From the IMG/VR virus record IMGVR_UViG_2859564202_000001: a DNA stretch of 64,000 nt; one strand, 5' to 3'. The notes below the pieces were generated by a model. The model searched no databases and was not told where the DNA came from. It saw only the letters and a list, made by a program, of their open reading frames with translations. Within the stretch, counting starts at the first letter, position 1; each line of letters begins with the position of its first letter. Below, one piece after another: positions 6,295 to 64,000 of the stretch. Origin of the DNA: a virus (Duplodnaviria; Caudoviricetes). The translations under genes and the position numbers were made by a program.

Positions 6295-6645
6295 TTATTC
6301 GAAAGGAATGCCTTCTTTTTCGCAGTACTCTTTGTACGCGTCGATGATTTCCTGTGGCACGATACCACGTTGACCAACGGCCATGTCATTGTCAATAGCC
6401 CACAAACGCGCCTTACGGTGCAGCTCTGCATCTACAGATCCACGACGGATCTGGCGTGCAGATTCCTCACGACCAATCTTGATGACTTCTTTGAGCGTGA
6501 TCATATCGAGCTCAGTATCAATGTCGTCACCATTAAGGTCCACTACATACTGTTTACCCTCGTAGACCACGCCTACAGAGACGACATTGGTGATGCGCTC
6601 ATGTGAGACATCAGATGTGTATTCGACCGACTGAATAATGGCCAT
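6295..6645 (-). CDS. cgpS: Lsr2-like xenogeneic silencer CgpS (start may be 6651)
   Basis: Lsr2-type N-terminal YVVDL segment; C-terminal RLWAIDNDMAVGQRGIVPQEIIDAY with the RGI AT-hook-like motif. Confidence 0.9.
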   Translation of the reverse strand: MAIIQSVEYTSDVSHERITNVVSVGVVYEGKQYVVDLNGDDIDTELDMITLKEVIKIGREESARQIRRGSVDAELHRKARLWAIDNDMAVGQRGIVPQEIIDAYKEYCEKEGIPFE

Positions 6646-15205: not shown

Positions 15206-15496
15206 AGGCGTTTCTTTTTCTCCCCCTGTGGTCTGACCTGTCAGGCAGTCAGGTTGGTTGATTTTTTCTGGCGGTGGCTGCATGGTGCAGCGTCAGTGAA
15301 AAGACAACACAGCGAAGCTGTGTTCGGGGGATTATGTGAGATCGCACCGGCACGTGTTGCGGTGCGGATCGCACGTTGTTCTCTTGTGGCCTGGCTCAGA
15401 TAGCCACTACCTACACGCATCTGTTGTGCTGAAACAACAGCGCGACACTCACTCTTCTCATTACTCAACAACTTACTTTTAAGGACTACATAACTT

Positions 15497-28888: not shown

Positions 28889-31057
28889 TTAATAACCGTA
28901 CTGCGGATCATTGGTTTTCGCTTCAGTCTCACGAACATACGCTTCATAAGGATTCGCGGGTCGTTCCTCTGGCAGATTCGATTCACGGAAATCATGAACA
29001 TTCATATCCAGCTGTGCTGCCTGATTGATTTGCGCTGCTTGTACACGACGACGAGCTGCCAGTTCTCGACCTGATCCACGATTTTCTTGAGGTCGAACCA
29101 TAGCATCAGTGTACTCGCTGCTCGTGTCTTTTTCCATAGTTATGGATTTAACAAAAGCGTCCGCATCCTGCCCAAATGTCTGCCCATGTTTGCGCACAAA
29201 CTTATCCAGAATCGCTGGATGATCACGCTGCATCACCTTCTCAGCCTGATCCATCGCCCATACCTGAACCTCCTTGACCTGCTCAGTCGTCATCGCGGTC
29301 TGATTACCATCATCCTGCAACACCTTGATCGCTGCCTGTGTGCGCTGTGCCATAGCAATCTGGCGCACCCGAGAAGCACTGCGACCACGTGTATCAAAGT
29401 CAGGTAACAGTTTCTTCGCAGAGGCGAGGCCACTTTCTGAGACATCAGTCGCTGTCATGAAGCCGGCAACTACATCACGAACGCCATCGGAACCGTACTG
29501 CTCACCAGCTACCCGCATTTCTGTCGCCAAAGTCGCAGCCAGGTTGTCAGCGAAGTTCTGCGCATTACCCATCGGCTCACGAACACTAAACCAGCCGGCG
29601 TTTTTACTCAAACCTGCACCATCAGGGAATTGCCATGTCGGGGTCTTTGAAATCACCATGCCACGTCGTTGTTCACCCAGGCGCACGGTGCCAAAAGCCG
29701 TCTCATTAAACCGGGCAGCATAGCCTGGATCGCGCTCCATGCGACGACCCACAATATCGCGGGCAGCGCCATAAATATCCTTCGACTTCAGGCCATGCTC
29801 TTCACCCTGCTTGACCACCATGTCAATATCTTCTGCCACCTGTGCAGAGACATCCTTCGCATCCACTATCGCTTGACCATCCGTATCTACTTCACGCATC
29901 GCCTCATACGCTTGATCAGACAACCGAACCACGGTCTGCGCGGCAGAAGCAACACTCATGGGGATTCGTTCACGGTTGCTGATGATCGCTGTTTTCTGCT
30001 GCATGAACGCATCAGAGAGCGACTTCGCTTCCTTCTCCGTCTTATCGCGCGTCAGCTTTGACTTCCAAAAATCTTTGGACACATACTTCGACAACTTAGT
30101 GTCTTTAGCCTGTTCCAGATCCTTGTTAAACTTGCGCTTCATATCCACGTTCACACCGGTCATACGTGGGCTCATGCACCACATCACCGCAGCAGTCGTA
30201 CACGCGGCCATCACCGTTTGAGTGTTGACCCCTTTGCGCAGTGGTCCCATCGCAGCCTGTGCCATCTCTTGGGCAAAATTATCATGAGCTGCATTGATCT
30301 TCCGCTTACGAGCAGCTGCATCTTTGGCATCCCGTGCTAGGTACGGATTATCACTTTTTGGTGGCTTGGCATACTTCTTTTCCGCTGCTTTGCGTTCCTT
30401 TTTGGCAACGTCAATAGGGTCAAAACTCTGTGCATGGACTTCACGCATGTGCAGCTGCTCATCCACACCAGAAAGATTAGCCTCATTATCAGCTACATCT
30501 TGTGCGCCACTACGCGGTACACCAGCCTCATCAGCGAGTCGATCATCATCACTACGATCATCTTGTCCAGCACGCACCCAATGACTGGTATCAAATTCTT
30601 CGACATCACTGAGGTCATCAAAATCAGACGGAGCTGATTCACCAAAAATGCTGCGCTGTTCACCATCAGCAACCTCATAACTCGGTGTTATCTCAGATGG
30701 GTGAAGCTTTCGCCGAGGCAACACATCACGCAGTGTTTCTGGTTCCTCAGACTCACCATAAGCAACAGGCTGTTGCTCTACACCAATAATAGAAGCCAAG
30801 TCGCTGCTACTCATGACATTTTTCCTTGGGTCATGCAGCTGCCCCAACGTCTTAGGCTGGGTTAATGACTGGACAGAAGATACCTCGACACTAACCTCTT
30901 CTACCTGTTCATTTACATCAGGCGCCTCTGCTTGTTCACGCACCTGCTCACTTGCTTGTGCAGCAAGACTAATCTCCGCCTCTACGACTGCCTGGGCACG
31001 CCGAGCCACCCGCTCTTCTCGTATCTTATTCTTCTCATTCCCAGCCACTGTCACCAC
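28889..31057 (-). CDS. Large helical hypothetical protein
   Basis: 722-aa ORF; AAGGAG RBS. Confidence 0.8.
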   Translation of the reverse strand: MVTVAGNEKNKIREERVARRAQAVVEAEISLAAQASEQVREQAEAPDVNEQVEEVSVEVSSVQSLTQPKTLGQLHDPRKNVMSSSDLASIIGVEQQPVAYGESEEPETLRDVLPRRKLHPSEITPSYEVADGEQRSIFGESAPSDFDDLSDVEEFDTSHWVRAGQDDRSDDDRLADEAGVPRSGAQDVADNEANLSGVDEQLHMREVHAQSFDPIDVAKKERKAAEKKYAKPPKSDNPYLARDAKDAAARKRKINAAHDNFAQEMAQAAMGPLRKGVNTQTVMAACTTAAVMWCMSPRMTGVNVDMKRKFNKDLEQAKDTKLSKYVSKDFWKSKLTRDKTEKEAKSLSDAFMQQKTAIISNRERIPMSVASAAQTVVRLSDQAYEAMREVDTDGQAIVDAKDVSAQVAEDIDMVVKQGEEHGLKSKDIYGAARDIVGRRMERDPGYAARFNETAFGTVRLGEQRRGMVISKTPTWQFPDGAGLSKNAGWFSVREPMGNAQNFADNLAATLATEMRVAGEQYGSDGVRDVVAGFMTATDVSESGLASAKKLLPDFDTRGRSASRVRQIAMAQRTQAAIKVLQDDGNQTAMTTEQVKEVQVWAMDQAEKVMQRDHPAILDKFVRKHGQTFGQDADAFVKSITMEKDTSSEYTDAMVRPQENRGSGRELAARRRVQAAQINQAAQLDMNVHDFRESNLPEERPANPYEAYVRETEAKTNDPQYGY

Positions 31058-31062
31058 ACTCC

Positions 31063-31338
31063 TTAAAAGTCCATATCGTCAAACTGATTATTCTGAGCTG
31101 CTGCACCTGTGCGTTCAAAACGACGCAACAATTCTGCGGCACCCAACCGTGCTGTTCGCACATGCGCCGGCACAACAGCCGCTAATTCTTTATCTGTTAA
31201 AGGTGACACAGGCTGCGCTGCAACCTCTACCACGGGGTCAGAGGCAACCACCTCACGTGCAACAGATCGACTCTGCTGTCGTGGTGTAGCTCTCATGCTC
31301 TGACCCCGCGTTCCTTTTCTGCTGAAATCTACTGCCAT
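31063..31338 (-). CDS. Hypothetical protein
   Basis: Starts 3 nt after the RNAP stop. Confidence 0.65.
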   Translation of the reverse strand: MAVDFSRKGTRGQSMRATPRQQSRSVAREVVASDPVVEVAAQPVSPLTDKELAAVVPAHVRTARLGAAELLRRFERTGAAAQNNQFDDMDF

Positions 31339-31341
31339 TAT

Positions 31342-34300
31342 TTAGAGCTCAAACCCGCCATCCTGTCGTTGTGGTGGTTCCTGTTGGTTGTAACGGCTTG
31401 TATCAAATCGACCCATAAACTGATTGTTCGCACCACCATGAGTAAACGGGTTTCCTGTACCTGGCTTCGGCACAACCGGAGTAGGCGGAACAGAATTCTG
31501 TGGTACCGGATTATGCACAGGCGGAATATTCTGCTGCTGAGGCACAACTGGCTGTTGCGCCCCCATTGCAGGTCCCTGATGTCCATAATTCCCGATTTTT
31601 CCGCCCTGGTCGAGTGGCTGACCAACGCCCCGGAAGTCCGTCTGAGCAGGCGAAACAGGTTGCTGTGCCGGAGGTGTGACAGGCATAACTGGCGGGGTCG
31701 CAGGCACCTGCTGCTGAACATAATTCCCCTGTACACCTGCATCAGGTAACGGTGCTGGTGCAGCAATCCCTGTACCTACTTCTGCCGGCACACGACGCTC
31801 AATACGGAAACCAGAACGTTGTGGGACTCGCTCAAAGCTCGCCAATGACTGCTGTGCAGAAATCGACTGAATCTCCACATCAGGGATACCAAAACGCGCT
31901 GCATCCTCCATTGCCTTCATATTGGCGCGCACCACACGAGGGGCAAAGTCATAAGCATCACCGTCGTAGATGTTGACCTGCTGCTTTGCCATCTCGCACA
32001 ACAAATCAAAGCGGTTCTTCTTATCGCCATAGGCAAGCTGATCAAGTGCTAGTGGCTTAATCTCAGTGGGTAGCTCATCATGGCTAAGCACACGCATATA
32101 ACCCTGCTCATCAGAGAATTCTTCCGCGATCTTCTCCACCTGGTCAACGCCAACCGAGACACCCATACCCTTGTCATCGGCGTACATCTCCATGTACTGC
32201 TGTACCCATTCATCCTTGGTGGCCTGGATAGGCTGGTGGTTCTCGTCCCTAACGACTTCCCACTCATAGCGACCTTGCTCATTCTCACCACGACGCATCT
32301 TGCGACCTTGGTAGAGATCACCTACTGGTCCCATAAGAGTTTCTGCACGATAGAGCGCGTCAATCGGGTCGTGCTTCGCCTGCAGAATCGACTGCTGTGC
32401 CGGTGCTGATGCAGCCATAGCTTCCTTGGTCAGACCAAGATTGCGGCACAATGCCACCATTTCCTGCTCTTTTTTACCAGCCACACCGGTAAAGAGCACC
32501 TTAATTGCAGTCGCCTTCTGCGAACCCTCATAGTGGCTACGCAGCGCTTCTGGCGTTGGTTGACCTACGTCTTTAAAACCCTGCGCCGGATCAGCGCCGA
32601 TATAGGTGGCATATTCCTTCAGCTTGCCAGGCGAACCTTTCGCACCCGTCTCGAAGCACTGCGCAACAGAAGCCATATGGTTTTCCATACCGTCAAAACG
32701 CAAGGTCACCAAACCATCGCGGTTGGCAAAAGCCTGTGCATAGTGCTCATTGAGATCATCCATGTGTGCACGGTTGACCTCTAGCAATTCTTCGCGGCTA
32801 ATCTCGCCGGCCTCGTATTCACGCTGGTAGCGGTTAAGCTCAGAGACAATAACCTTCATGTTCTCGGCCATTGCCGGATCATGGTGCTGCGCTACCTGTA
32901 CATCGAGGCTGTCATGCAGAGTTAGCCCATAAAACATAGTGCCGTCCTCCATACGCTTACCATCACCAAGATCAAGCATGTTTGCCTCAACTGTGAGCCT
33001 GGACAATGCCTCCTCATGCGCCTTTTTCGGCAGATTGCCGACCAGACCTACAGAGTCACCATCGAAGTCACCGTCAAAGCTCTTCACCGACACAGGGTTG
33101 ACTGCCACACCGTGCAGATCATCATTAATAACCACACGCAAATAGCGCACACCACCATCGCGGATCACCGGATCACGCCACACCATTGCATAACCGTTAT
33201 CGAGAACGCCGAGTTCACGTGCCATCGAAGAGTTCATGGCTACTTCATCAACTGACAGGCGTGGATCACCTGTCCACACAGCAGTAGCGGAGTGTGACTG
33301 TCGCGCCGACATAAAGCCGTCCTTGAACACATTGTTCTTGGTCTCGATCCGGCTGGCGACAATATCATTAGCAATTCCATCAAAGCTTGCCTGCACCTTT
33401 TTCTGTGCTTGATCAACAAACTTCTGTGACTCGCTCAGTCGCTTTTCCGCAGCACGAGGCAACGTGCCGTGCTGCGCTTCCTCCTGGCGCAATGCGTCAA
33501 TCTTGGCTTGCTCTTCTGCCAGCTTGTAGCACGTATCAAAAATAGCCATATACCGCGTGGTGTACTCATGTCGAGAGGTACTACCGTCCGCTAAATCCTC
33601 ATCACTGCGCAAATGCGGGCTCAGTAGTGGCAACTGATACATGTCTGGATTATTAGGTGACTCTTCTAGCTGTGCACCATTGCGCAACTGTAACTGGAAA
33701 GGAATCTCCATAACACCACCAGCGCGACTGATCTGCTCAACAAAAGCTTCGCGCACCTGTGCACGATTAACACGATTATTCAGCTCACCGTTCTCATCGT
33801 AAATGCTTGGCATCTCGATGATATTGCGCTGCTCATTGGACTCGCTGAACCCCTCGCGCAACTCACCATACGGGGTGACATCAAGCCCCGTGACGCGAAG
33901 ATATTCCTGGAAGTTAGCCAATGCAGAGACGTTGTTGCCATAAAAGTGCTCCATAATCTCATGACATTCCTGGGCTTGGAGCACCCACGCCAGCTGAGAA
34001 GACGCTTTACGTCCTTGGCCCTCACGAACAGCTTCTTCATCATAGACATTGGTTTTCGCATCAACAGCCATATGCGTGACGATGAAGTTGAGATCACCAG
34101 AGGCACCTGGTTGAACACGAGTAGAACCATCATTATTCCTGAACACCACATCCTGCGGGTTGTTCATGAGCTCACGTGCCGTGCCACCATTAAAACGAGA
34201 AATGGCAGAAAACGGACTCATGACAACCTCTAGATCAGGGTTGTCTCGGAAAAACGCCACCTCTGATTCCAGCCCTGCTGCACGTGCATCAGCATCACTC

Positions 34301-37300
34301 ATCGCTGGATCAACAACAAGAGCGATCACACCCTTATTACCGTGAAAATCAGACAGCTTATCGCCGGCAACCAAGGGGCGCATCTCATCTTCCGTATCGC
34401 GAATAACATGGGTATTCGCAAAATCGGCAGAGACAATAATGCCATCTTCAAAGTTCCAACCGCCCAGCTGTATCATCGCAGTGCGTGCACCACCAGTCAC
34501 AGCGCTAGCCTGCATGATGTTCGAGAAAGTCATGTTCTGACGGTCATGTGGGTCAAAGCCCATCGCCCATGATTCTGGATGCGCTGCAACAGGTACTCGA
34601 TCAGCCGGATCACCAGGGGTAATCATGCCATCAGCGCCCACCTTCGCAGAAGGCAACAAATAGCGAACAGAACCCTGGTTCGCCGCCATACCAGTCATCA
34701 TGGGATCAAAGAAACCTTTACCCGCATCAACATCAAGTACAGAAATGTTACGCCCACCGGTAAGCACCAGCGCATCACGGGAGTTATCATTACGCGCATC
34801 AAAACCACGCTGCTGTGCTCGAATATCCTCCATCACATTCGCACCATCACGAATAGAGTTGTCGTAGCGCACACGCAAACTCGCAGTCTCAAGCAACGCA
34901 GCACGCCACTCATCGCTCAAACCTTCTTCGGCGCTGCGCTCGAAGAAGTCCACAGGGAAGCGATTGTCATACAGTCGCTTATATGCACTGTTGATGCTGG
35001 TTGTAGCACCCACTCGGGATCGCTCAGTGAACATCAAATCTTCTCGCACACGGTACACCAACGCCTCTGACATCACCTGCTCATAGCCTTTGAGCTTGGT
35101 ACGCTCTTCTAAACTCTTTGTCTCACCAGGCTTTTGTGGTACCACAGACGCGGTGTAGCCAGGGGCAAACATATAGTTCTCGCCACCATTAAATTTGGTG
35201 ACAATTTCACCATGCTCACCGCGAGTAAAAATCTGACCTATCTCACCCTGCACATGACGGGTGCGTTCACCGCGAACCTGCCCCTTACTATCTACTGCAC
35301 GACTATCCTTCGCACCAACACGTCGCTGTGCGGTCCACCGCACCACACCGTTATCGTCAACAGCAATATCGACCACATCAGCACCATTGCGGGAAATAGT
35401 CTCGGCAATGACAGTGCCAAATCGAGCCAACTGCGGGTCAAGATCAGGGTTATTAACCATTTTCTGCGCGGTCTCAGGATTAAATTTGAGCAACTGTTGA
35501 TTAATAACATCGTTATAGAATTCGTCACCGCGCAGTTCATCGCCAGTAATCGAAGTCGCTCGCAACGCGGCAATAATATCGTCATGGTTTGACCACAGGG
35601 ATTTAGCACTCGGCATGTGCTGAGCAACTGTCACCGGATTAAAACGCAAGCCGGTAACAGGATCAGGCTCCACCGTGCCGACATAATCATCAAGAACAAG
35701 GGCCGCGTGCTGACGCACACGATCCTCCACGGTCACAGCATTCATTGCTGAGGTCATCGCAGCAATCTGCTCATGATCACCATCGCGGATAGCAGCCATA
35801 TAATCATCGCGGTTAACCCCAGGGTTAAGCAGATCGGTTTCCTCACCTCGCAGCATCGCCCAATAGTCCTGCTTTATCGCCATGAGCTCATCCTCACCAG
35901 CAAAAGCCGGCATGAAGTCAGGATCATCGGCGTACTGTGCAGAAAGCGCAATCAGTTCTTCAACGCCGAGCTCTTCGGCCACACGCGCACGAGTAAGGGC
36001 GATATTGTTACCAAGCCACTCCGATGCTTTCGCTTCATTATCAAACCACTTTCCAGGACCAGCACTTCGATCACGTGCATCCTGAACGATCGAGAGCCCT
36101 TCACGCACCATGAATGCGGAACGATTCTTAGTGAAATATGCATCCTGTGCCTGCTCTAAAGCACGTGGGTGTCGAGCATTAGGCACACCAACAAGACCTT
36201 TGCCATCCTGTCGCTCAACCTCTCGACCGAGAGCAAATTTCACGAGATCGACAACTTCAGTTGGGCTTGGTTCATAATCAGTAGCCGGTGTCCACGTTCC
36301 ATCACCGTTCTCCATGCGCTCACGAGCTCGTAGACGTTCTTCCGCTGTTTGTTCGGCGGAATACTTAATCACAGTGCCAGAATCATAGACACGACCCACC
36401 CACTGTTCATTGGCGCGAGTATCAGTGAGACGAATATCAATACGGGTGCCCTCAATACGCACTTTAAGCTGTCCCGGCTCACGATCTGGCTCGATCCTAA
36501 AATCCACACCCTCATCCGACAGATACGTCAAAATAGCTTCCGAGCGCGCGATACCCTCATCAGACATGACCTTGTTGGGGTCAATTTTCTGACTCGCAAC
36601 ATCTGCGGTATCAATGAGTCCAGCACGCAGCCATGACGCTGCGGCACGGTATTCTTTAGCCGTCATAAACTGACCAATATTGGGCAGTCGCATCTGGTCA
36701 TTCTCGGTGATAGTGCGCCAGGCAATAGCTTCACCATTGACCCATTGAGTCAACGGTCGCACACCGCCTTTAGTGTCGTCTTCTCGATGAGTGCCCTCGT
36801 AAACATCATTATCTTGTAGGTGGATCGTTGCTAGATCAAGGTCCCTGATCATGCCAACACTCTCTTCGGACAGTGATAGCAGCTTGGTACCGTGCACACG
36901 GACTACTTCGCGGTCTGACCAGCGTGGATCATAAGGCGAAATAGGTAAACGACGACCACCCAGATCAGGTCCCTCAGGCAAACCATTAGGTCCAATTGCA
37001 GTGCCGACCATCTTGTCGAAACGGTGACGCAGCGCCTGGTACCCCTTTGAACCCTCACCCTCGCGAGCAATCGCACTAAACATGGGTGCTGCGTGAGGTG
37101 CCACCTCAGCAAAGGCAGCATTGACAGAGGCGAAGAATGCCTGAGTACTCCCCCGCTGCTCTACTGGTTCATAGGTTGCGAGATGCTCATCAACAAGCGC
37201 TCGGATCGCACGGCCATCAGAGGTGCTAAACTGCGACACACCAGCATCAACGTGCGTACCCCAGGTACCAAACATCTCGACACCTTCATAGAAGGCGTAC

Positions 37301-37851
37301 TCCCGGAAATAGCTCTCCATCGGATCAATGACAGGTAAACCCACACCCTCTGATTGGCGAACGGACTCTTGCGCGAGCGTTTGTTCAGCCTGGAATGTTG
37401 CTTGATCACGTGCCTGGAAAATAGCTGCCTGCTCTTGCTCATAAGCAGCTTGCTGTAGCGCTTGTGCCTGCTGCTGTTGGGCCACGAGATCCTGCTGCAC
37501 CAGCGCGTCATAAGATGACTTAATCGCCGTGTATTGCGGTGAATTAAGAATATTTCGCCTAGTTACCTTCGCGAACTGTGGTCGGTGTACACAGCCATGA
37601 GCTTCGGCATCAGCGGCGAAGGCATCATCGAAAGACGCAAACATGATGGCGCCATAGGTCGCTTCATCATTGAGGTCTAAGCCCTTATTGTTTGCTGCGC
37701 GCTGTTTCATCAAGGCTTCTGCTTGCCTATAGATACGCACAGCATCGTGATCACCCAGTGGAGCTTTGCCCCAGTGATCTTTTTGACCCCACTCTGAGCG
37801 CGCCATCTCAAGCGACCGTTCAAAAGCGTGTCGAAATAAAGTTTTGGACAT
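31342..37851 (-). CDS. Single-polypeptide two-barrel DNA-dependent RNA polymerase (fused beta/beta'-like)
   Basis: Beta-like GWNFEDGII and GDKLSDFHGNKG (34365-34330), then beta'-like WRDP and catalytic DFDGD (33069-33055), later GAKG. Confidence 0.88.
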   Translation of the reverse strand: MSKTLFRHAFERSLEMARSEWGQKDHWGKAPLGDHDAVRIYRQAEALMKQRAANNKGLDLNDEATYGAIMFASFDDAFAADAEAHGCVHRPQFAKVTRRNILNSPQYTAIKSSYDALVQQDLVAQQQQAQALQQAAYEQEQAAIFQARDQATFQAEQTLAQESVRQSEGVGLPVIDPMESYFREYAFYEGVEMFGTWGTHVDAGVSQFSTSDGRAIRALVDEHLATYEPVEQRGSTQAFFASVNAAFAEVAPHAAPMFSAIAREGEGSKGYQALRHRFDKMVGTAIGPNGLPEGPDLGGRRLPISPYDPRWSDREVVRVHGTKLLSLSEESVGMIRDLDLATIHLQDNDVYEGTHREDDTKGGVRPLTQWVNGEAIAWRTITENDQMRLPNIGQFMTAKEYRAAASWLRAGLIDTADVASQKIDPNKVMSDEGIARSEAILTYLSDEGVDFRIEPDREPGQLKVRIEGTRIDIRLTDTRANEQWVGRVYDSGTVIKYSAEQTAEERLRARERMENGDGTWTPATDYEPSPTEVVDLVKFALGREVERQDGKGLVGVPNARHPRALEQAQDAYFTKNRSAFMVREGLSIVQDARDRSAGPGKWFDNEAKASEWLGNNIALTRARVAEELGVEELIALSAQYADDPDFMPAFAGEDELMAIKQDYWAMLRGEETDLLNPGVNRDDYMAAIRDGDHEQIAAMTSAMNAVTVEDRVRQHAALVLDDYVGTVEPDPVTGLRFNPVTVAQHMPSAKSLWSNHDDIIAALRATSITGDELRGDEFYNDVINQQLLKFNPETAQKMVNNPDLDPQLARFGTVIAETISRNGADVVDIAVDDNGVVRWTAQRRVGAKDSRAVDSKGQVRGERTRHVQGEIGQIFTRGEHGEIVTKFNGGENYMFAPGYTASVVPQKPGETKSLEERTKLKGYEQVMSEALVYRVREDLMFTERSRVGATTSINSAYKRLYDNRFPVDFFERSAEEGLSDEWRAALLETASLRVRYDNSIRDGANVMEDIRAQQRGFDARNDNSRDALVLTGGRNISVLDVDAGKGFFDPMMTGMAANQGSVRYLLPSAKVGADGMITPGDPADRVPVAAHPESWAMGFDPHDRQNMTFSNIMQASAVTGGARTAMIQLGGWNFEDGIIVSADFANTHVIRDTEDEMRPLVAGDKLSDFHGNKGVIALVVDPAMSDADARAAGLESEVAFFRDNPDLEVVMSPFSAISRFNGGTARELMNNPQDVVFRNNDGSTRVQPGASGDLNFIVTHMAVDAKTNVYDEEAVREGQGRKASSQLAWVLQAQECHEIMEHFYGNNVSALANFQEYLRVTGLDVTPYGELREGFSESNEQRNIIEMPSIYDENGELNNRVNRAQVREAFVEQISRAGGVMEIPFQLQLRNGAQLEESPNNPDMYQLPLLSPHLRSDEDLADGSTSRHEYTTRYMAIFDTCYKLAEEQAKIDALRQEEAQHGTLPRAAEKRLSESQKFVDQAQKKVQASFDGIANDIVASRIETKNNVFKDGFMSARQSHSATAVWTGDPRLSVDEVAMNSSMARELGVLDNGYAMVWRDPVIRDGGVRYLRVVINDDLHGVAVNPVSVKSFDGDFDGDSVGLVGNLPKKAHEEALSRLTVEANMLDLGDGKRMEDGTMFYGLTLHDSLDVQVAQHHDPAMAENMKVIVSELNRYQREYEAGEISREELLEVNRAHMDDLNEHYAQAFANRDGLVTLRFDGMENHMASVAQCFETGAKGSPGKLKEYATYIGADPAQGFKDVGQPTPEALRSHYEGSQKATAIKVLFTGVAGKKEQEMVALCRNLGLTKEAMAASAPAQQSILQAKHDPIDALYRAETLMGPVGDLYQGRKMRRGENEQGRYEWEVVRDENHQPIQATKDEWVQQYMEMYADDKGMGVSVGVDQVEKIAEEFSDEQGYMRVLSHDELPTEIKPLALDQLAYGDKKNRFDLLCEMAKQQVNIYDGDAYDFAPRVVRANMKAMEDAARFGIPDVEIQSISAQQSLASFERVPQRSGFRIERRVPAEVGTGIAAPAPLPDAGVQGNYVQQQVPATPPVMPVTPPAQQPVSPAQTDFRGVGQPLDQGGKIGNYGHQGPAMGAQQPVVPQQQNIPPVHNPVPQNSVPPTPVVPKPGTGNPFTHGGANNQFMGRFDTSRYNQQEPPQRQDGGFEL

Positions 37852-38276
37852 ACTAAAGTCCTCCCTTTTCTTTATTCTTTTGTCATATCACTAATGGACA
37901 TGCGGATGTGTGTAGTTACATCCATAATCATACTCTAAAACTTAATCGTTTTTAAAGTACTTTTAGAACTAGAAATGAAAGTTAAAAAACTTAGGTCTTT
38001 AGAGCACCGACAACCCCTCATCCGAGCTCAAAAATTTGTACTCGGCTGCCCTTGCGCATTAGGATTCTCTCAACTAAGACATGTTCACCACGGCACCAAA
38101 AAGACACCATTTTATGCCGCACATTTGTTCACTACATTCACTGAAAAATCTTGTTGACCACTGACAACTAGCAAGAAGCGGCAAATATGTGCGGCTTGGC
38201 ATAAACTGTGTCCATCGGTACCTGTGTAATAGACACACGGTAAACACGCACAAGATAAAACATTGCGAGATTTTTC

Positions 38277-39368
38277 ATGAGTACAAAACCCACTATTGTG
38301 TCCACATTTTCTGGTTGCGGTGGCCTCGATCTTGGCCTCCAAGAGGTCGGATTCGACCCCATTTGGGCCAACGACTTCTCAGAAGAAGCAGTCCAAACCT
38401 ATAAGCACAACATCGGTGACCACATTGTTCACGGCGACATCACTGAAATTGATCCGTTTACTGATGACACCATCCCTGACGGCGATCTCGTCACCGGCGG
38501 CTTCCCGTGCCAGGACTTCTCCATGATCTGGAAGCGTCCTGGACTCGACGGCAAGCGTGGCACCCTGTACCAAAACTTCCGTGACTTTGTTGCAGCAAAG
38601 AAGCCTAAAGCCTTTATCGCAGAAAACGTGAAGGGCCTACTCACTGCTAACCAGCACAAGGCTATTAAGACCATCATTGAAGACCTCGAAGCTGTTGAGC
38701 CTGGCTACATCGTCAAGCCTCGCCTGTACAACTTCGCTGAATACGGTGTCCCACAATTCCGCGAACGTGTGCTCATTGTTGGCATTCGCCGTGACACCGG
38801 CTTTGATTTCAAGCACCCAGCTCCTACCCATGGCCCTCGCGGTGACATGCCGTATAAGACTGCCGGCGAAGCGCTCAAAGGCGTGAAGGATGTCCCCACA
38901 AACAACAACCACATGAAGATCATGCCTCGCACCGTTGAAGTGCTTAAGCGCATCCCTGAGGGCGAAAACTTCACCGCGATCCCCAAAGATGACCCCTACT
39001 ACGTCAAGGGCATGATTAGTCACGTTTACCGTCGCTTGCACCGTGATGAGCCATCCAAAACCCTTATCGCCGGTGGCGGCGGGGGTACATGGGGATACCA
39101 TTATGAAGAAAATCGAGCATTGACCAACCGCGAGCGGGCTAGAATTCAATCGTTCCCCGATGACTTTGAGTTTTTGGGATCAAACACCGAAGTCCGCCGC
39201 CAAATCGGTAATGCTGTTCCTCCTGTAGGTATGCACGCTGTGGGTGAGCGACTGATGAACCTGTACACCGGGAATTACACTCCCGTCGATCTAGAGGAAC
39301 AGCACGCGTACCTGCAGACGCTCTCCATTAAGGAACGTCTCGCGCTGGCTGATCAGGAAGCTGATTAA
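38277..39368 (+). CDS. cglIM: C5-cytosine DNA methyltransferase M.CglI
   Basis: FSGCGG, GFPCQ, ENVKG, QFRERV, QIGNAVP motifs. Confidence 0.95.
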   Translation: MSTKPTIVSTFSGCGGLDLGLQEVGFDPIWANDFSEEAVQTYKHNIGDHIVHGDITEIDPFTDDTIPDGDLVTGGFPCQDFSMIWKRPGLDGKRGTLYQNFRDFVAAKKPKAFIAENVKGLLTANQHKAIKTIIEDLEAVEPGYIVKPRLYNFAEYGVPQFRERVLIVGIRRDTGFDFKHPAPTHGPRGDMPYKTAGEALKGVKDVPTNNNHMKIMPRTVEVLKRIPEGENFTAIPKDDPYYVKGMISHVYRRLHRDEPSKTLIAGGGGGTWGYHYEENRALTNRERARIQSFPDDFEFLGSNTEVRRQIGNAVPPVGMHAVGERLMNLYTGNYTPVDLEEQHAYLQTLSIKERLALADQEAD

Positions 39369-39376
39369 GTAGATAT

Positions 39377-40453
39377 ATGAAGCCCACCGTTAATGTTGTG
39401 TTCAATGCGCATCACCCCAAAGATACGCAGCCGTTGGATAAGTTCTTCGATAAAGAACTTAAAGACACACATCATCTCGATATAACGGTGGGTTATATCA
39501 GTGAGAAATCACTACAATATTTGCTTCTTATTGCAGGCACTCACCCCGACCTCACCATCACACTCACCTGTGGAATGCACGCTCGTGAAGGCATGACTGC
39601 TGCCCAACTGCATCATGCGCGAGTGCTCCATGACTACTTAAGCGACCATGATCGAGGCGGGGTGTTCGTTATTCCCCGATTGCGTTATCACGGCAAAATC
39701 TATCTTTTCCACAAGAACCAGCACACAGATCCTATTGCTTATATCGGTAGCGCTAACCTCTCAGCCATCGTTCCTGGGTACACCTCTACATTCGAGACCG
39801 GCGTCATCTTAGACCCCGCACCTGAAGATCTCGTGCTTCATCTCAACCGTGATGTCGTACCCCTATGTGTCCCCATTGACACCGCGCATGTCCCCATCAT
39901 TAAAGATCAAGAATCCCCGATGAAGCACGTCGCTGAAGCAACAGCTGTGTCCACCTCTGATGTTGTTGCCATCATGTCCAGCCCATTTACTTATAGTTTT
40001 GACCTTAAACTCAAAGCCACTGCCAGCAGCAACCTCAATGCTCATAACTCAGGCGGTGGCGCGCGCAAACAGAAAAACGGTAGCTTCCTTGCACGCAATT
40101 GGTATGAGGGCGAAATCATTGTCGGTGTCGAGACAACAAGACTCCCAGGTTACCCACAAAACAAATCCGAATTCACTGCGGTCACTGATGACGGCTGGTC
40201 ATTTGTTTGCAAAATCAGCGGAGGAAACGGAAAGAACCTACGCAGCAAAGGTGACCTGTCCATCCTCGGTACGTGGTTAAAGTCTCGATTCATTGAACAA
40301 GGTGCCCTGGAATACGGCGAGGATGCCACCCAAGAAAACATCGACCGTTTTGGGAGAACACATATGACCATGCGCTATCACCCAGATTTCGATGTGTGGT
40401 CATTCGATCTCAGCCAAACCCCGAAGCCTTCGACACAGATTGGGCAGGATTAA
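39377..40453 (+). CDS. cglIR: PLD-family restriction endonuclease R.CglI (NgoFVII-like)
   Basis: YHGKIY...IGSANLS HKD-type motif; position in operon. Confidence 0.9.
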   Translation: MKPTVNVVFNAHHPKDTQPLDKFFDKELKDTHHLDITVGYISEKSLQYLLLIAGTHPDLTITLTCGMHAREGMTAAQLHHARVLHDYLSDHDRGGVFVIPRLRYHGKIYLFHKNQHTDPIAYIGSANLSAIVPGYTSTFETGVILDPAPEDLVLHLNRDVVPLCVPIDTAHVPIIKDQESPMKHVAEATAVSTSDVVAIMSSPFTYSFDLKLKATASSNLNAHNSGGGARKQKNGSFLARNWYEGEIIVGVETTRLPGYPQNKSEFTAVTDDGWSFVCKISGGNGKNLRSKGDLSILGTWLKSRFIEQGALEYGEDATQENIDRFGRTHMTMRYHPDFDVWSFDLSQTPKPSTQIGQD

Positions 40454-40454
40454 T

Positions 40455-42353
40455 TTGTCACACCACACTCACCTCAATAACTACATCACGAGCTTGAGTG
40501 ATAACGCTGATCTCCGTGAAAAAGTCACCGCAACCGTAGACGCTTTCCGCCATACCGTCATGGATGACTTCGACTACATCAGTGATCAACAAGTCCTGCT
40601 TTATGGCGATGTCCAAAGCGGTAAAACCTCACACATGCTGGGAATTATCGCAGATTGCCTCGACAGTACGTTTCACACCATTGTTATTCTGACCTCGCCT
40701 AACACACGGCTCGTGCAACAAACATACGACCGTGTTGCCCAAGCATTTCCAGATACTTTGGTGTGCGACCGTGACGGATACAATGATTTCCGTGCGAATC
40801 AAAAGAGCCTCACCCCGCGAAAATCTATCGTAGTCGTCGGAAAAATACCTGCAGTTCTTGGTAATTGGTTACGCGTCTTTAACGACAGTGGCGCACTTTC
40901 TGGACACCCTGTACTCATTATTGATGACGAAGCAGATGCGACAAGTCTCAACACCAAAGTAAATCAGTCTGATGTTTCGACCATTAACCACCAGCTCACT
41001 AGCATAAGAGACCTTGCCACAGGATGCATCTACCTTCAGGTCACAGGTACACCTCAAGCGGTGCTTCTTCAAAGCGACGATAGCAACTGGGCAGCGGAAC
41101 ATGTGCTTCACTTCGCACCTGGTGAGAGCTACATCGGTGGTCAACTTTTCTTTTCTGAGCTCAACAACCCTTATCTACGACTTTTCGCTAATACCCAATT
41201 TGACGAGGATTCTCGCTTCAGCGACGCCATTTACACCTATCTCTTAACCGCAGCACTGTTCAAACTTCGCGGTGAAAGCTTGTGTACCATGCTCATTCAC
41301 CCCAGCCACACTGCATCCAGTCATAGAGACTTCGCGCAAGAAGCCCGCCTCCAACTCACTTTCGCCTTCGAGCGATTCTATGAACCAATGATTCAGCACA
41401 ATTTCCAACGTGCTTATGAACAGCTCGCACAAACTGACAGCAACCTGCCACCCTTGAGAAAAATTCTTAACATTCTTGGTGGCATGGAAGATGACTTCTC
41501 CATCCACATCGTCAATAGCGACAACCCGACTGTTGAGGAAGATTGGGCTGATGGTTATAACATTATTGTCGGTGGCAACTCGCTTGGGCGCGGTTTAACA
41601 TTCAACAACTTGCAAACCGTTTTCTACGTGCGCGAATCCAAGCGACCACAAGCAGACACCCTGTGGCAGCACGCCCGCATGTTTGGCTACAAACGCCACA
41701 AAGACACCATGCGTGTGTTCATGCCGGCCACTATTGCTCAAACCTTCCAAGAGGTCTATCTCGGCAACGAAGCTATTAAAAATCAGCTCGATCATGGCAC
41801 GCATATCAACGACATTCGGGTCATTTTAGGTGATGGCGTCGCACCTACTCGTGCCAATGTTCTCGACAAACGCAAAGTTGGAAACCTCAGCGGTGGCGTC
41901 AACTACTTTGCCGCTGATCCTAGAATCAAGAATGTCGAAGCACTCGACAAAAAACTCTTGGCCTACTTAGACAAGCACGGTGAGGACTCCACCATCGGTA
42001 TGCGCGCGATAATCACCATTCTCAACGCCTTTACTGTAGACCCCAACGATCTCGACCTCGCGACCTTCAAGGCTGCGCTCCTTGACTTTGAACGCAACCA
42101 ACCTCATCTCACAGCACGTATGGTGCTGCGAACAAACCGCAAAGTCAATCAGGGTACAGGCGCCCTGCTCTCCCCTACTGATCAAGCTCTCAGCCGTGCA
42201 GAAGTCGCACACCCATTATTGATCCTATACCGCATTGAAGGTGTTAACGATGCTGCTGCGCAACGAGGTGAACCTACGTGGTCAAGCGACCCTATCTGGG
42301 TGCCTAATATTAAACTCCCTGGTCAACGTCAATTCTGGTGCGTAGACGGCTAA
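40455..42353 (+). CDS. cglIIR: SF2 helicase-like/Z1-domain restriction subunit
   Basis: GDVQSGKT, IDDEAD, TGTP, LGRGLT, DTLWQHARMFGY; TTG start 1 nt after the cglIR stop. Confidence 0.9.
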   Translation: MSHHTHLNNYITSLSDNADLREKVTATVDAFRHTVMDDFDYISDQQVLLYGDVQSGKTSHMLGIIADCLDSTFHTIVILTSPNTRLVQQTYDRVAQAFPDTLVCDRDGYNDFRANQKSLTPRKSIVVVGKIPAVLGNWLRVFNDSGALSGHPVLIIDDEADATSLNTKVNQSDVSTINHQLTSIRDLATGCIYLQVTGTPQAVLLQSDDSNWAAEHVLHFAPGESYIGGQLFFSELNNPYLRLFANTQFDEDSRFSDAIYTYLLTAALFKLRGESLCTMLIHPSHTASSHRDFAQEARLQLTFAFERFYEPMIQHNFQRAYEQLAQTDSNLPPLRKILNILGGMEDDFSIHIVNSDNPTVEEDWADGYNIIVGGNSLGRGLTFNNLQTVFYVRESKRPQADTLWQHARMFGYKRHKDTMRVFMPATIAQTFQEVYLGNEAIKNQLDHGTHINDIRVILGDGVAPTRANVLDKRKVGNLSGGVNYFAADPRIKNVEALDKKLLAYLDKHGEDSTIGMRAIITILNAFTVDPNDLDLATFKAALLDFERNQPHLTARMVLRTNRKVNQGTGALLSPTDQALSRAEVAHPLLILYRIEGVNDAAAQRGEPTWSSDPIWVPNIKLPGQRQFWCVDG

Positions 42354-42431: not shown

Positions 42432-43955
42432 TTAAGCATCTTCAATACGCCTAAAGGCTCGCGCGACTTCTTTATCAAAGTGACCCTGGGCGAGATCACG
42501 CCAATGCGGAAGCTCCACCAGCATGATGCGGAATGCTCGGGTGGTCTTATATTTACCCATAGCAGACAGCGGATCATCCTCTGTGCCAGATAGAGCTTCT
42601 TCACCCTCAGAGTAGACACGCGACTGCTCCACTCCTGCTTGCGCGCGCATAAGTGCAATATCTTCCTGCGACAACGCCTCAATCAACACAGTGCCATCGA
42701 CAGCATTAACCAAGCCGTTGTTAGCAGTCACCCGGAAATTCGGATCTTGAGCAAAAGCGTGCAGGCTCTCATCATAGGCTGCAGTGAGCTCATCTTCGAG
42801 TGAGTCCTGCAGGATGTGGCCGAATTGATCAGCCAGCATATCTCGTGACACCTTGCCTTCGGCATAACGCTTCAACCGCATGTCAGCGAGCTTATGTTCT
42901 GCATTCTCCTGATCGTGAATGAATTCATCATTGACCTCTGCTTCTTCAGACAGAGATTTCTTTTTCACCTTCGTACCAGTAGCCACGGGGAAGCCCTGAG
43001 CACTGTCTTCGAACTCATCATCAAAAACGTCATATTCAGACTCCATGAAATCACGAGCATTCATGACAGACTCATCCCCCTCGTCATAATCCGGCGTGTC
43101 ATCGTACTCATCTTTCGCGATCATCGTGTCCACGATGTCCATGATTTCTGCTGAATACACATCCATATCCAGGCGTGCAATATCAGAGTCATCGAGCCCA
43201 GTCGCCTTTTTATAAATATCGACGGCACGCTGAGTACGAATCGACTGCGCCATGCGCTTTTCCAGCATCGCCATAAAGTCCGGTGCATTTTGATTCACAT
43301 CGAATTCATTAGCGCTCGACAGTGTTGGAATAGTCTGCAACGAGTATTCGCGACCCGGTTGGATAATCTGGTTAGCAAACAACATGAACGACATCGGCCA
43401 AATCGTTTCATTGCGTGACCACACCGGATACTGACCCGCACGGAAGACGATGGCGTTCTGCGATGGCAGAGTATTTAGGTCATTATAAGACACCACCGGC
43501 TCTTTTTCAGTTGCAGACGTGTACGACACTTTACCCTCGGTGCGCATAACTAACTGTGCCAAGTCACGGGTTACGGTCTTTGAATTTCTGCGTACAACAT
43601 GTCGCTCACCTGACCAATCCACCAACGTCTTAATCATTGTTTCGTCTGTGGATTTCAAGAAGATAATGTTGGACGTGTTGTGGGTCGGGATCATATCGTC
43701 AGTGATGTAGAGATGGTCACGGTCGGCAATGCTGATGCATTGCACGGTATCGCGGCGGGAGAATTCTACAGAGACGATTTCATTGTCTGCTGCGGGCACG
43801 TCGAGACGTGCCCGATCTGCTGGATCGAAGTTGTCGAGGATCTCTGGCGCCCGCGCTGCGACACCAGGCAGAAACACCTTATCCCCTCGTGCCAGCATCG
43901 CTTTAAGCTCTGCCGTGGTGACGATTCTGCGCTCGCCAGCAAGTGTTTGCGTCAT
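42432..43955 (-). CDS. virD4: Split-intein C-half (93 aa) fused to the C-terminal 414 aa of a VirD4/TraG coupling protein
   Basis: VQCISIADRDHLYITDDMIPTHN|T intein blocks F/G, then TSNIIFLKSTD...SG; own GAAGGGG RBS. Confidence 0.88.
   Translation of the reverse strand: MTQTLAGERRIVTTAELKAMLARGDKVFLPGVAARAPEILDNFDPADRARLDVPAADNEIVSVEFSRRDTVQCISIADRDHLYITDDMIPTHNTSNIIFLKSTDETMIKTLVDWSGERHVVRRNSKTVTRDLAQLVMRTEGKVSYTSATEKEPVVSYNDLNTLPSQNAIVFRAGQYPVWSRNETIWPMSFMLFANQIIQPGREYSLQTIPTLSSANEFDVNQNAPDFMAMLEKRMAQSIRTQRAVDIYKKATGLDDSDIARLDMDVYSAEIMDIVDTMIAKDEYDDTPDYDEGDESVMNARDFMESEYDVFDDEFEDSAQGFPVATGTKVKKKSLSEEAEVNDEFIHDQENAEHKLADMRLKRYAEGKVSRDMLADQFGHILQDSLEDELTAAYDESLHAFAQDPNFRVTANNGLVNAVDGTVLIEALSQEDIALMRAQAGVEQSRVYSEGEEALSGTEDDPLSAMGKYKTTRAFRIMLVELPHWRDLAQGHFDKEVARAFRRIEDA
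43677..43955 (-). other. IntC: C-terminal half of a class-3 split intein
   Basis: Block F Cys (VQCI), terminal T-H-N, +1 Thr. Confidence 0.88.
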
Positions 43956-44076
43956 ACTATAAACCCCTTCAATTAAATCAAGTAATTAATATACTAACTT
44001 AATTGAGTTTATTTTTACGGTTTAATTTACTCTAAGCGAAGACGCCCGGAATCACCATAAGCACCGTTTCCAGACG

Positions 44077-44114
44077 CAGAAACTAATTGAGCATATTGTA
44101 AAATATAGCTATGC
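44077..44114 (+). repeat. Degenerate direct repeat, copy 1 (copy 2 at 45161-45198)
   Basis: 34/38 identical by eye, with weaker similarity extending about 35 nt upstream. Confidence 0.8.
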
Positions 44115-44181
44115 TGACAATGATTCCGCCACGACCATCTACACAGCTGACAGATAGAAGCGTTGAGAAGTGTTTTAAGTG

Positions 44182-44901
44182 TTAGCGATTAAAGCGCCCA
44201 CAAATATAACCAACAGCAAATCCAGCAAGAGCACTTGTTGTTGCGCTCTCGACAGGACGGGTGGCTATATCCTCGGCAGGACTATCGGGGCTATCAGCAT
44301 TATCTTCGTCATAAAAATCAGTGAGTATGCCATCAATAAAGTCATCCATGATTGATGTGATGAAACTGGCGACTGCAATGAGCAGCAGCGATACGCACAT
44401 AATCCATGCAGGTGCATCACTAAACGTATTAGGTGTGCTTGGGACGATGAATCCAAATGTAACAGAGTAGACAAGTCCGGGAATTAGTAGCGCATAAATA
44501 GCAATTAATACTACATAAGCAATAACAACACTGAACCTAGAAGAAGTCTTGTTGACGTAAAGCGCCATGCGACGTGCGATATGCGCGAACTCATGGCGAC
44601 CGTGCACTACTCTATACATTGTTATCGCCATGTAGATCGCCAGGATTACTACGGATACAATCATTGCAGTCGAAGTTAGCCCTTCGACCAATGGAGTTGG
44701 CGCAATCATCAAAACCAGCAGCAGCGCTCTAATCTTGCGGACGAATAATGTGCGCAACATACTTCCTGCAATTTGCATATTGCTAGGATCGTCTGTGCCC
44801 CTGCCACGTCCGCCCTTGAGGTAGTGGTCTTCAATTCTATTGGTATTAGTCACTGGACTTTTTTCTCCTTGTGTAAATGTTCCTGAAAATAGTAGACTCA
44901 T
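44182..44901 (-). CDS. Membrane protein
   Basis: About 4 hydrophobic segments; start uncertain. Confidence 0.65.
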   Translation of the reverse strand: MSLLFSGTFTQGEKSPVTNTNRIEDHYLKGGRGRGTDDPSNMQIAGSMLRTLFVRKIRALLLVLMIAPTPLVEGLTSTAMIVSVVILAIYMAITMYRVVHGRHEFAHIARRMALYVNKTSSRFSVVIAYVVLIAIYALLIPGLVYSVTFGFIVPSTPNTFSDAPAWIMCVSLLLIAVASFITSIMDDFIDGILTDFYDEDNADSPDSPAEDIATRPVESATTSALAGFAVGYICGRFNR

Positions 44902-45194
44902 TCGACTTTTAGGAATGGCAATTAACTCTGTCGATGAAACTGTGAAGTAAAAGCAGTTTCAGTAAAAGCACATCTATACGTGCTCTCACTATCACTGTGC
45001 GCGCATCATAAAAACGCGCAAGCACTATATAAATATCAACAGTTTCTGCACAATAATCAGAAAACAATAAATAAGCTGGTCACCACAGCAACTCACCCCA
45101 CCCGGTCCCCCTTTTTTCCTCACTGACACCGGAGCCGCCTCAAGCACCACGCTGCAATCACAGAAGCTAGTTGAGCATATTGTAGAATATAACT

Positions 45195-47015: not shown

Positions 47016-47178
47016 TTCTGCAGATTAGTTACTGAAACTGAATTAATGTAGGCTGCGTATGGCCTATTTTTGCTGGTTGTACAGTGTTTTTCCGCATTCG
47101 TAAGGGATGAGTGACCTGTCAGGTTGCCACTTCTAACCAAATAATAAGTAATCAATTTTAAAGGAAAAGAATTAAAGC

Positions 47179-47558
47179 ATGTCTAAAAATACAAATATTT
47201 CGCCATTGCTCTCCTAGCACCCATCCTCGGCTTAGTCGCTGCAGGTTGCTCCACTACAGCTGAAGAGCCAGCTGCAACTCAGGTAGAAGAAACAACAGTC
47301 GCCCGAGTTGAACACGATACTTACGACACTATTGCTAACCAGCTACAAGATGCCGGTGTCTATGACGATGTGGCCTTTGCCGAAGGCTACTACCAGGAAA
47401 TGGCTGAGGTTGTATGTGAAGCACGCGAAGAGGGTATCACCCACGAGGACACCCTGCATATGCTCAATGACATGATGGCAATGAAACGATCTGGCGAAGT
47501 ACTCAATACGCTCGCTGATGTTCTCTATGCAAATGAATGCCCTGAATATCGAATCTAA
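47179..47558 (+). pseudogene. Lipoprotein gene with a 1-nt frameshift in an A5 run
   Basis: Adding one A at 47185-47189 gives MSKKYKYFAIALLAPILGLVAAG-C (lipobox), in frame with ORF 47370-47558. Confidence 0.7.
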
Positions 47559-47597
47559 ATTGTTGGTTCACTCTGCATAGACACAACACCACACAAC

Positions 47598-47636
47598 AAA
47601 AAACAACCCCCTAAGGATAATCCTCAGGGGGTTGTT
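47598..47636. terminator. Terminator directly after the IntN stop (probably bidirectional)
   Basis: AACAACCCCCT...AGGGGGTTGTT; U tract on the - strand. Confidence 0.8.
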
Positions 47637-47649
47637 CTGTTTCGACTCA

Positions 47650-47969
47650 TTATGCTGCGCTTGCTGCATCCTGCTCGGCAGGAACCACAATCACTTCCCA
47701 CAAATGCTCATCACAAGCCTCTGTGGTTGAGCCATCTTTACGTGTCACAGTAAATACATCTCGCTCACCCTGTGGGAACACACCGTCAATCTCGCTGACT
47801 GTCCCCTTTGGGGTAAGCACCTTCATACCTGCTTCTGCTTCGCCCATCGTGACCCATCCATCAGGTGTTGCGATCTTCGCCGTCAACGGCTGCGCATTAC
47901 CTTGGAGAATCTTGTCTGAGGCTTCGCCATACACCTGAGTCAACTGCTGCAGTGTCTGCAGAATCAATG
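47650..47969 (-). CDS. virD4: VirD4/TraG exon 3 followed by split-intein N-half
   Basis: (T)LILQTLQQLTQVYGEASDKILQGN continues exon 2 in frame after intron removal, then AQPL... intein block A. Confidence 0.88.
47653..47895 (-). other. IntN: 81-aa N-terminal half of a class-3 split intein
   Basis: Block A AQPLTAKIATPDGWVTMG; block B DGSTTEACDEHLW. Confidence 0.88.
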
Positions 47970-63998: not shown

Positions 63999-64000
63999 TA

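Follow-up and report, generated by a model that had tools for sequence, protein, structure and literature searches.

NCgl1702 of Corynebacterium glutamicum, a predicted single-chain RNA polymerase associated with a family of Gram-positive conjugative elements

The 64,000-nucleotide stretch analysed here (the window; IMG/VR virus record IMGVR_UViG_2859564202_000001, Duplodnaviria; Caudoviricetes) carries on its minus strand, at positions 31342-37851, an open reading frame (ORF) with an ATG start whose 2169-aa product is predicted to be a single-chain β::β′-type RNA polymerase (RNAP). The ORF corresponds to NCgl1702 (cg1995) in the element CGP3 of Corynebacterium glutamicum, which is annotated as a prophage. 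Our results indicate that the gene belongs to the backbone shared by a family of conjugative elements from Gram-positive bacteria, a placement that follows from its synteny, from the collinearity of CGP3 with the Gordonia plasmid pGKT2 and from the identities of its neighbours. As for the function of the protein, the balance tips slightly in favour of a catalytically competent two-barrel DNA-dependent RNAP that would serve the element as its own transcriptase, tied to transfer or establishment.

The assignment of the ORF is made by sequence. The sequence printed under cg1995 and the cg1996 promoter sequence of an RNA-seq study (supplement, PMC3890552) map exactly to window positions 37240-37265, inside the RNAP ORF, and 38178-38208, just before the methylase gene cglIM (cg1996), and the predicted length of the product equals that published for NCgl1702. 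An earlier note on this DNA, made from the letters alone, had placed the protein among NCgl1702-like single-chain RNAPs, and the ORF turns out to be NCgl1702 itself. The RNAP reading is therefore prior knowledge. NCgl1702 was predicted from sequence in 2003 to be a fusion of the β and β′ catalytic subunits (Iyer et al. 2003, as related in PMC2919709), the reading was published in 2003, 2010 and 2021, and the prediction is now more than 20 years old. The same note knew of no biochemical characterisation, and our literature search likewise located no biochemical or genetic test of NCgl1702; one published study used cg1995 merely as a neutral integration site. The 2010 paper stated that 98% of NCgl1702 resembles nothing, even among related corynebacteria. 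Judging from current sequence collections, this statement is superseded, since about 500 clusters of full-length relatives are now visible and residues 170-1990 are conserved. What the present work adds is a domain map, a likeness that is closer to cellular RNAP than to YonO, a counted synteny and the collinearity between CGP3 and pGKT2.

Results

The active-site motifs of both large subunits stand in the one chain in the order of cellular RNAP, those of β preceding those of β′: GGWNFEDG (residues 1130-1137), GDKLSDFHGNKG (1163-1174), WRDP (1558-1561) and SFDGDFDGD (1591-1599). In an alignment of 24 sequences, with relatives at 36-46% identity, the residues D1136, G1163-D1164-K1165, N1172-K1173, R1559-D1560-P1561 and D1595-F-D-G-D1599 (including D1597) are invariant, and the same catalytic residues are mostly invariant across 67 sequences. 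The Asp triad of DxDGD (D1595, D1597, D1599), the Lys pair (K1165, K1173) and D1136 of the acidic pair are all present. NFED, GDK...HGNKG, RDP and DFDGD had already been read in a single chain by the earlier note; they are found where it placed them, at residues that the relatives keep unchanged.

Comparisons with known families point in the same direction. Pfam gave sub-threshold matches in the correct order, Rpb2_6 at residues 1156-1181 and then Rpb1_2 at 1551-1616, and scans of the protein against PHROGs and NCBIfam were in weak agreement with RNAP families. A profile of the family matched PDB chains of β′, Rpb1 and Rpo1N with E values down to 1e-9, over a stretch that begins in the lid/rudder region and ends with the Asp triad. 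When compared with the host subunits by hhalign, NCgl1702 matched RpoC over 202 columns (~22% identity, probability 92%), and RpoB only around GDK..HGNKG. Taken together, the invariant motifs, the ordered family matches, the profile match and the identity of only 22% to RpoC argue that the observation is real and that NCgl1702 is not a recent copy of the RNAP genes of the host.

The core of the protein was modelled with AlphaFold2 (residues 1000-1990, 991 residues, 67-row alignment; model numbering starts at residue 1000), with a predicted local distance difference test score (pLDDT) of 93.1 and a predicted TM-score (pTM) of 0.90. The best PDB matches of the model in Foldseek are bacterial β′ chains (E 5e-12). 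An exhaustive structure search with VIA-align (VIA-wide) matched model residues 1-341 to β subunits and 327-990 to largest subunits. The earlier note had proposed structure prediction as a check on its reading, to which a model devoid of double-psi barrels would have been contrary; the model has two.

The β-type double-psi barrel with its hybrid-binding region comprises residues ~1100-1340 (33832-34554, minus strand) and holds NFED (34444-34455), GDK..HGNKG (34330-34365) and the invariant D1136, K1165 and K1173. In the VIA-wide search, the β part aligned with plastid β (Z 12.7 over 231 residues), with β of the phiKZ non-virion RNAP (nvRNAP; Z 12.5, root-mean-square deviation (rmsd) 2.8), with the AR9 enzyme (Z 12.2) and with Xanthomonas β (Z 11.7 over 257 residues), and β barrels matched model residues 87-268 at Z 12.2-12.5. 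It has been reported that NCgl1702-like enzymes have a β barrel without the SBHM 'flap' insert (PMC7824862). The β-like part of the core model, of ~340 residues, agrees with a flap-less barrel by length alone.

The β′-type module occupies residues ~1327-1990 (31882-33873, minus strand), as delimited by the VIA-wide and Foldseek searches, the family profile and hhalign. It contains a clamp-core-like start, a switch-2-like N..F....M..R...S.T motif, RDP, DFDGD (33055-33069) and GAKGS. This part of the model aligned with human RPA1 (Z 14.8 over 535 residues), Sulfolobus Rpo1N (Z 14.5), Drosophila Rpb1 (Z 14.5 over 546), the vaccinia subunit (Z 14.3) and Mycobacterium tuberculosis β′ (Z 12.0 over 508), and these largest-subunit alignments extend into the C-terminal parts of the subunits. 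Isolated double-psi barrel domains superpose on model residues 520-645 (Z 10.6-12.5, rmsd 1.7-2.0). QDE-1 (Z 13.2 over 418 residues) and gp96 of P23-45 (Z 11.2) also match the core model, covering much less of it. A 37-residue helix with the family consensus ATA.K..GTGVAG (model 768-804, protein 1767-1803; 32443-32553, minus strand) is followed by helices at model 809-824 and 830-841, which form with each other a helical hairpin (32311-32430, minus strand), and at the tip of this hairpin Q1820, L1823, K1826 and H1827 are invariant in the 24-sequence alignment. In the model, the helix and the hairpin are likely to be the counterparts of the bridge helix and of the trigger loop, with its cellular TQ..L...H motif.

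The conserved part of NCgl1702 lies between two variable ends. Residues 1-169 (37345-37851, minus strand) form a Q/A-rich N-terminus and residues 1991-2169 (31345-31881, minus strand) a P/Q-rich low-complexity tail; neither had a tblastn match in the 73 related loci described below, and conserved columns start only at about residue 180 of the 24-sequence alignment. The N-terminus is followed by a family-specific conserved region of ~630 residues (170-800; 35452-37344, minus strand), which tblastn found in 69 of the 73 loci. AlphaFold2 modelled residues 160-1060 with a pLDDT of 88.7 and a pTM of 0.88. For residues 170-800, Foldseek found no PDB match at E<0.1 and the VIA-wide search none at Z>=8, and the ESM Atlas yielded TM<=0.26 by shape and nothing by features; as the long model was used, with single domains not folded separately, this lack of matches does not demonstrate a new fold.

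Residues ~805-1055 (34687-35439, minus strand) weakly resemble the lobe and protrusion of β. In the VIA-wide search, residues 646-896 of the model of 160-1060 aligned with the N-terminal parts of β from AR9 nvRNAP (Z 5.8 over 178 residues), Xanthomonas (Z 5.4 over 163), plastids (Z 5.3) and Thermus (β1, Z 5.0). The scores are low, yet four independent β chains matched in the correct order, and the β module modelled here probably starts near residue 800. The description of about 1000 residues of unknown N-terminal sequence, given in the earlier note, thus holds for residues ~170-800 and fails for ~805-1055, where the weak likeness to the N-terminal lobe of β is seen.

The family to which NCgl1702 belongs is large. 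A word-indexed search retrieved 483 relatives, all 1.7-2.3 thousand residues long, and an exhaustive HMMER scan gave 507 clusters at 50% identity (363 of them below 1e-30), in which the core always begins ~800-1000 residues from the N-terminus. The named hosts are Gordonia, Rhodococcus, Arthrobacter, Microbacterium, Streptomyces and others, and more distant relatives come from metagenome-assembled genomes of Lachnospiraceae and from plasmids of Staphylococcus and Lactococcus. The distribution of the gene is sporadic, as 300 further species genomes from the same GTDB family yielded no relative. None was found among 50,697 phage records, and 13 records of a plasmid collection contained one.

A search for related loci with the single protein as the query retrieved none, and the search with an alignment as the query retrieved the loci. 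The synteny sample consisted of 73 of them, each with 10-kb flanks, a length that bounds the upstream counts of the 831-aa protein and the Clp-type ATPase. On the minus strand of the window, the order is MobL-type relaxase, several proteins of no assigned family, Clp-type AAA+ ATPase, 831-aa protein, coupling protein, RNAP, 91-aa ORF and 722-aa protein. A coupling protein gene stands upstream of the RNAP gene, on the same strand, in 68 of the 73 loci. The 831-aa protein is also encoded upstream on the same strand in 63 loci, and the Clp ATPase in 47 (flank-limited). A homologue of the 722-aa protein follows downstream on the same strand in 57, and a UvrD-type helicase gene lies convergently on the opposite strand in 11 (flank-limited). 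Conservation of the 91-aa ORF was not detectable by tblastn in the 73 loci; pGKT2 has a 112-aa ORF at the equivalent position. NCgl1702 is encoded beside a relaxase and a coupling protein in a transfer region, and the claim of the earlier note that the gene lies inside a transfer module is borne out by the coupling protein gene that lies upstream in 68 of the 73 loci, and by the collinearity with pGKT2.

pGKT2 (NC_018580.1), a self-transmissible plasmid from Gordonia, has the module in identical order, with KTR9_RS00355 as the RNAP orthologue, and the same module is present on plasmids of Gordonia, Rhodococcus, Streptomyces, Staphylococcus and Lactococcus. Sixty-seven ORFs of pGKT2 have any match in the C. 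glutamicum genome; 57 of these fall in CGP3, where they are collinear, at ~1.832-1.958 Mb. The pGKT2 MobL (an 891-aa ORF) matches genome positions 1,903,404-1,905,884 with 44% identity over 853 aa (E 0). Experimental transfer of pGKT2 to Gordonia, Rhodococcus and Nocardia recipients has been described (Jung et al. 2011, as reported in PMC5640721). The literature on CGP3, which is called cryptic, noticed only the alpAC pair on pGKT2 (PMC4446434). As judged from the shared genes and their order, the central part of the 'prophage' CGP3 is an integrated member of this conjugative-element family. On the Staphylococcus aureus plasmid, the order is MobL, AAA ATPase, 727-aa protein, coupling protein and RNAP. 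MOB-suite types the S. aureus and Lactococcus plasmids as non-mobilizable, and yet the former has a MobL, a coupling protein and the same order of the module.

According to the RNA-seq study, cg1992-cg1993-cg1994-cg1995 form one primary operon on the minus strand, no transcription start site (TSS) is given for cg1995, and a 107-nt antisense transcript is listed inside the 5′ part of this gene (PMC3890552 and its supplement). The sequence of the antisense transcript matches the window exactly at 37240-37346 (plus strand). A σ70-like pair of hexamers is present 76 nt upstream of the RNAP start, and shuffled sequence gives such matches at least as often.

Of the dispersed repeats in CGP3, the strongest is a hairpin motif, AAAAGACAACGA-CAGC-RAA-GCTG-CGTTCGG-N10-GA, with a bulged 8-bp stem and a GAA or AAA triloop. 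Its 14-15 copies all lie on the plus strand, before plus-strand genes, between genome positions 1,789,014 and 1,977,623. None was found outside CGP3 in the 3.3-Mb genome, and one is in the window (15303-15326, plus strand). The motif recalls the hairpin promoters of phage N4. As a family-wide promoter it was rejected, since nhmmer, clustering of triloop hairpins and self-BLAST found no counterpart in pGKT2. RNA-seq reads over nine copies, seen in coarse bins and with an uncertain strand convention, indicate that the region is transcribed in two runs, with the listed 5′ ends off the motif. Among the entries listed in published TSS tables, no promoter or 5′ untranslated sequence has the motif, CGP3 being mostly silent. 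Motif discovery by k-mer enrichment was dropped, as it was swamped by coding bias. On the S. aureus plasmid (NZ_CP150776.1, 35854-41312), five same-strand copies of CCACTTAG-N-TATAAAT...AAAGGA precede small genes around ssb. The CGP3 hairpins and this promoter-like repeat are leads for private promoters, not evidence of them.

Discussion

NCgl1702 has in common with the cellular β and β′ subunits (RpoB, RpoC; Rpb2, Rpb1) the two double-psi barrels, the Asp triad, the Lys pair and the ED pair, and also the switch-2-like, GAKGS, bridge-helix-like and trigger-loop-like elements, with 508-546 residues alignable to the largest subunits. It differs from them in being a single chain, with a β part reduced to ~540 residues and an extra N-terminal region of ~630 residues, and in that the element encodes no α, ω or σ partner. 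YonO of SPbeta, an enzyme of ~100 kDa that serves the late genes of the phage, is without trigger-loop homology and most of the domains of multisubunit RNAP (msRNAP; PMC5467207). What NCgl1702 shares with the YonO/QDE-1 type is one polypeptide with both barrels, encoded by a mobile element. However, NCgl1702 is a protein of 240 kDa with a trigger-loop-like hairpin and most of the β′ scaffold, it belongs to a conjugation module and it has no phage relatives in the collection searched. The two barrels, the bridge-helix-like helix, the trigger-loop-like hairpin and the long β′ alignment bring the modelled NCgl1702 closer to the cellular polymerases than to YonO. The analogy with YonO drawn in the earlier note is thus a loose one: it stands for the single chain with two barrels, and falls short of the β′ architecture and the trigger-loop-like motif, which go beyond YonO.

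The nvRNAPs of phiKZ and AR9 are, like NCgl1702, divergent enzymes of the msRNAP type encoded by mobile genomes; they work independently of host σ, as NCgl1702 would, and their β pieces are among the best matches of the model. Those enzymes are composed of four or five polypeptides and are phage-borne, whereas NCgl1702 is fused and its family is plasmid-borne. Sog of ColIb-P9 and TraC of RP4 are also nucleotide polymerases from conjugative transfer regions, with folds unrelated to that of NCgl1702, since they are Toprim enzymes and the latter is of the two-barrel type.

An active DNA-dependent RNAP is the best reading of NCgl1702, in view of its intact active site, an architecture of the type suited to processivity and its strict conservation. 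A shortened β module, fused to a fairly complete β′ module behind the family-specific region, would synthesise RNA on the DNA of the element independently of the host RNAP and its σ factors. The gene stands in the fixed order MobL relaxase, Clp-type ATPase, ~830-aa protein, coupling protein, RNAP and ~720-aa protein. The polymerase would be produced together with the transfer machinery and would serve in the course of transfer or establishment. Given that no gene of the σ70 family was found in CGP3, the choice of promoters would be intrinsic or would rely on a partner. The 722-aa and 91-aa products, co-transcribed with the RNAP, are the obvious candidates for accessory factors of the polymerase. 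The co-location of the gene with those of the relaxase and the coupling protein suggests that the donor produces the RNAP when transfer takes place, which fits both an action in the donor and a passage of the protein to the recipient. The earlier note had the protein transcribe or prime the DNA of the element, and suggested that it may act in the recipient.

Several observations weigh against this reading. The activity, promoters and target genes of the family are inferred from sequence and model only, and so are the template and the site of action, donor or recipient. Residues 170-800, about one third of the conserved protein, have no explanation in it and might indicate another main function. 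The sole candidate for a private cis-element, the CGP3 hairpin motif, is without a counterpart in pGKT2. Moreover, CGP3 is regarded as cryptic, its coupling protein gene is interrupted and a cassette separates this gene from that of the RNAP, so that the C. glutamicum copy may no longer work in transfer.

Among the other explanations, the one that deserves most attention, though we hold it to be unlikely, is that of a conjugative primase, which would make RNA primers either on the transferred single strand, once in the recipient, or for the replacement strand of the donor, as Sog and TraC do for IncI and IncP plasmids. It would account for a gene in a relaxase and coupling-protein module, the typical place of transfer primases, and two-barrel RNAPs are able to initiate de novo on single-stranded DNA. 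However, CGP3 and pGKT2 each have a separate primase of the P4 family, which makes a pure primase role less likely, the clamp-, bridge-helix- and trigger-loop-like parts suit processive synthesis, and the Pfam and NCBIfam scans of NCgl1702 gave RNAP families only, with no Toprim or AEP domain. It is less probable again that the gene is a relic, intact and roleless in a decayed and immobile CGP3. The description of the element as cryptic (PMC4446434), the coupling protein gene in three pieces, the restriction-modification cassette that adjoins the RNAP gene, the lack of a TSS for cg1995 and the lack of relatives in the 300 other genomes of the GTDB family would all fit such decay, but the 6.5-kb frame is open with every family-invariant residue present, the gene is transcribed within an operon, and splicing may restore the coupling protein from its pieces.

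Two further proposals concern the kind of polymerase, and we give very little credence to either. An RNAP for the late genes of a prophage would agree with the annotation of CGP3 and with the role of YonO, a single-chain two-barrel enzyme that transcribes late genes (PMC5467207). It is at odds with a family that has 13 plasmid records and none in the phage collection, with neighbours that are conjugation genes and no capsid, portal or terminase family among the larger ORFs of the window that were scanned, and with a structure that resembles msRNAP more than it does the minimal enzymes of YonO/QDE-1 type. An RNA-dependent RNA polymerase akin to QDE-1, suggested by the alignment of that enzyme at Z 13.2, is equally improbable, as the sequence profile matches DNA-dependent enzymes only and the subunits of msRNAP jointly align over ~790 of the 991 residues of the core.

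The reading as an active DNA-dependent RNAP can be extended to a more specific scheme, which we regard as a long shot. In this scheme, the polymerase, made in the donor along with the coupling protein, would enter the recipient with the DNA and initiate on the incoming single strand, before host transcription, at element-specific signals, namely the 14-15 GNA-triloop hairpins of CGP3 and the five CCACTTAG-TATAAAT repeats of the S. aureus plasmid. If true, it would be the conjugative counterpart of the virion RNAP of phage N4, which is injected and uses hairpin promoters. A polymerase active during transfer would add to Gram-positive conjugation a step that is missing from current schemes. A cellular-type polymerase in one chain, borne by transmissible plasmids in Actinobacteria and Firmicutes, would offer a compact system in which to study how msRNAPs evolved and how they work. 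The polymerase is constantly accompanied by a giant coupling protein, a MobL relaxase and Clp-type ATPases, and this set marks a conjugation system partly overlooked by typing tools. The analysis also recasts CGP3, a 'prophage' much studied in an industrial strain, as largely an integrated conjugative-plasmid backbone.

Other features of the element

Downstream of the RNAP gene, the 91-aa ORF (31063-31338, minus strand) starts three bases after its stop and is probably cg1994, and the conserved 722-aa partner (28889-31057, minus strand) is probably cg1993. The 722-, 831- and 91-aa neighbours had no match in Pfam, NCBIfam or PDB sequences. Upstream, the VirD4/TraG-type coupling protein (Pfam T4SS-DNA_transf and TraG-D_C) spans 42432-54645 on the minus strand in three coding pieces (53350-54645, 49990-51672 and 42432-43955), all of which match one contiguous upstream gene in 68 of the 73 loci; the gene of pGKT2 encodes 1412 aa. 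The 831-aa protein and the Clp/Hsp100-type double AAA+ ATPase (Pfam AAA_2/AAA) are encoded at 54701-59123 (minus strand). The 3′ part of the MobL-type (MOBP) relaxase gene, cut by the end of the window, lies at 63369-64000 (minus strand); this fragment was recognised by its similarity to the pGKT2 MobL and was missed by Pfam.

The cassette cglIM-cglIR-cglIIR (38277-42353, plus strand), which corresponds to the published operon cg1996-cg1997-cg1998, encodes a C5-methylase, an NgoFVII-type endonuclease and a Z1/helicase protein, as identified by Pfam. It separates the gene of the coupling protein from that of the RNAP. The corresponding gap of pGKT2 holds only one small ORF on the opposite strand. 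The restriction-modification cassette looks as if it had entered the transfer operon later.

The genes shared by CGP3 and pGKT2, at 30-70% identity, include those of AlpC, a topoisomerase, MobL, the coupling protein, the RNAP, both Clp ATPases, MoxR, a VWA protein, UvrD, Lsr2 (CgpS), an SNF2 helicase, a DHH protein and the P4-family primase. The homologue of the pGKT2 Lsr2 gene is found at window positions 6328-6645 (minus strand, 42% identity) and, by its position, presumably encodes the xenogeneic silencer CgpS. Since it is common to pGKT2 and CGP3, the silencer would belong to the shared plasmid backbone.

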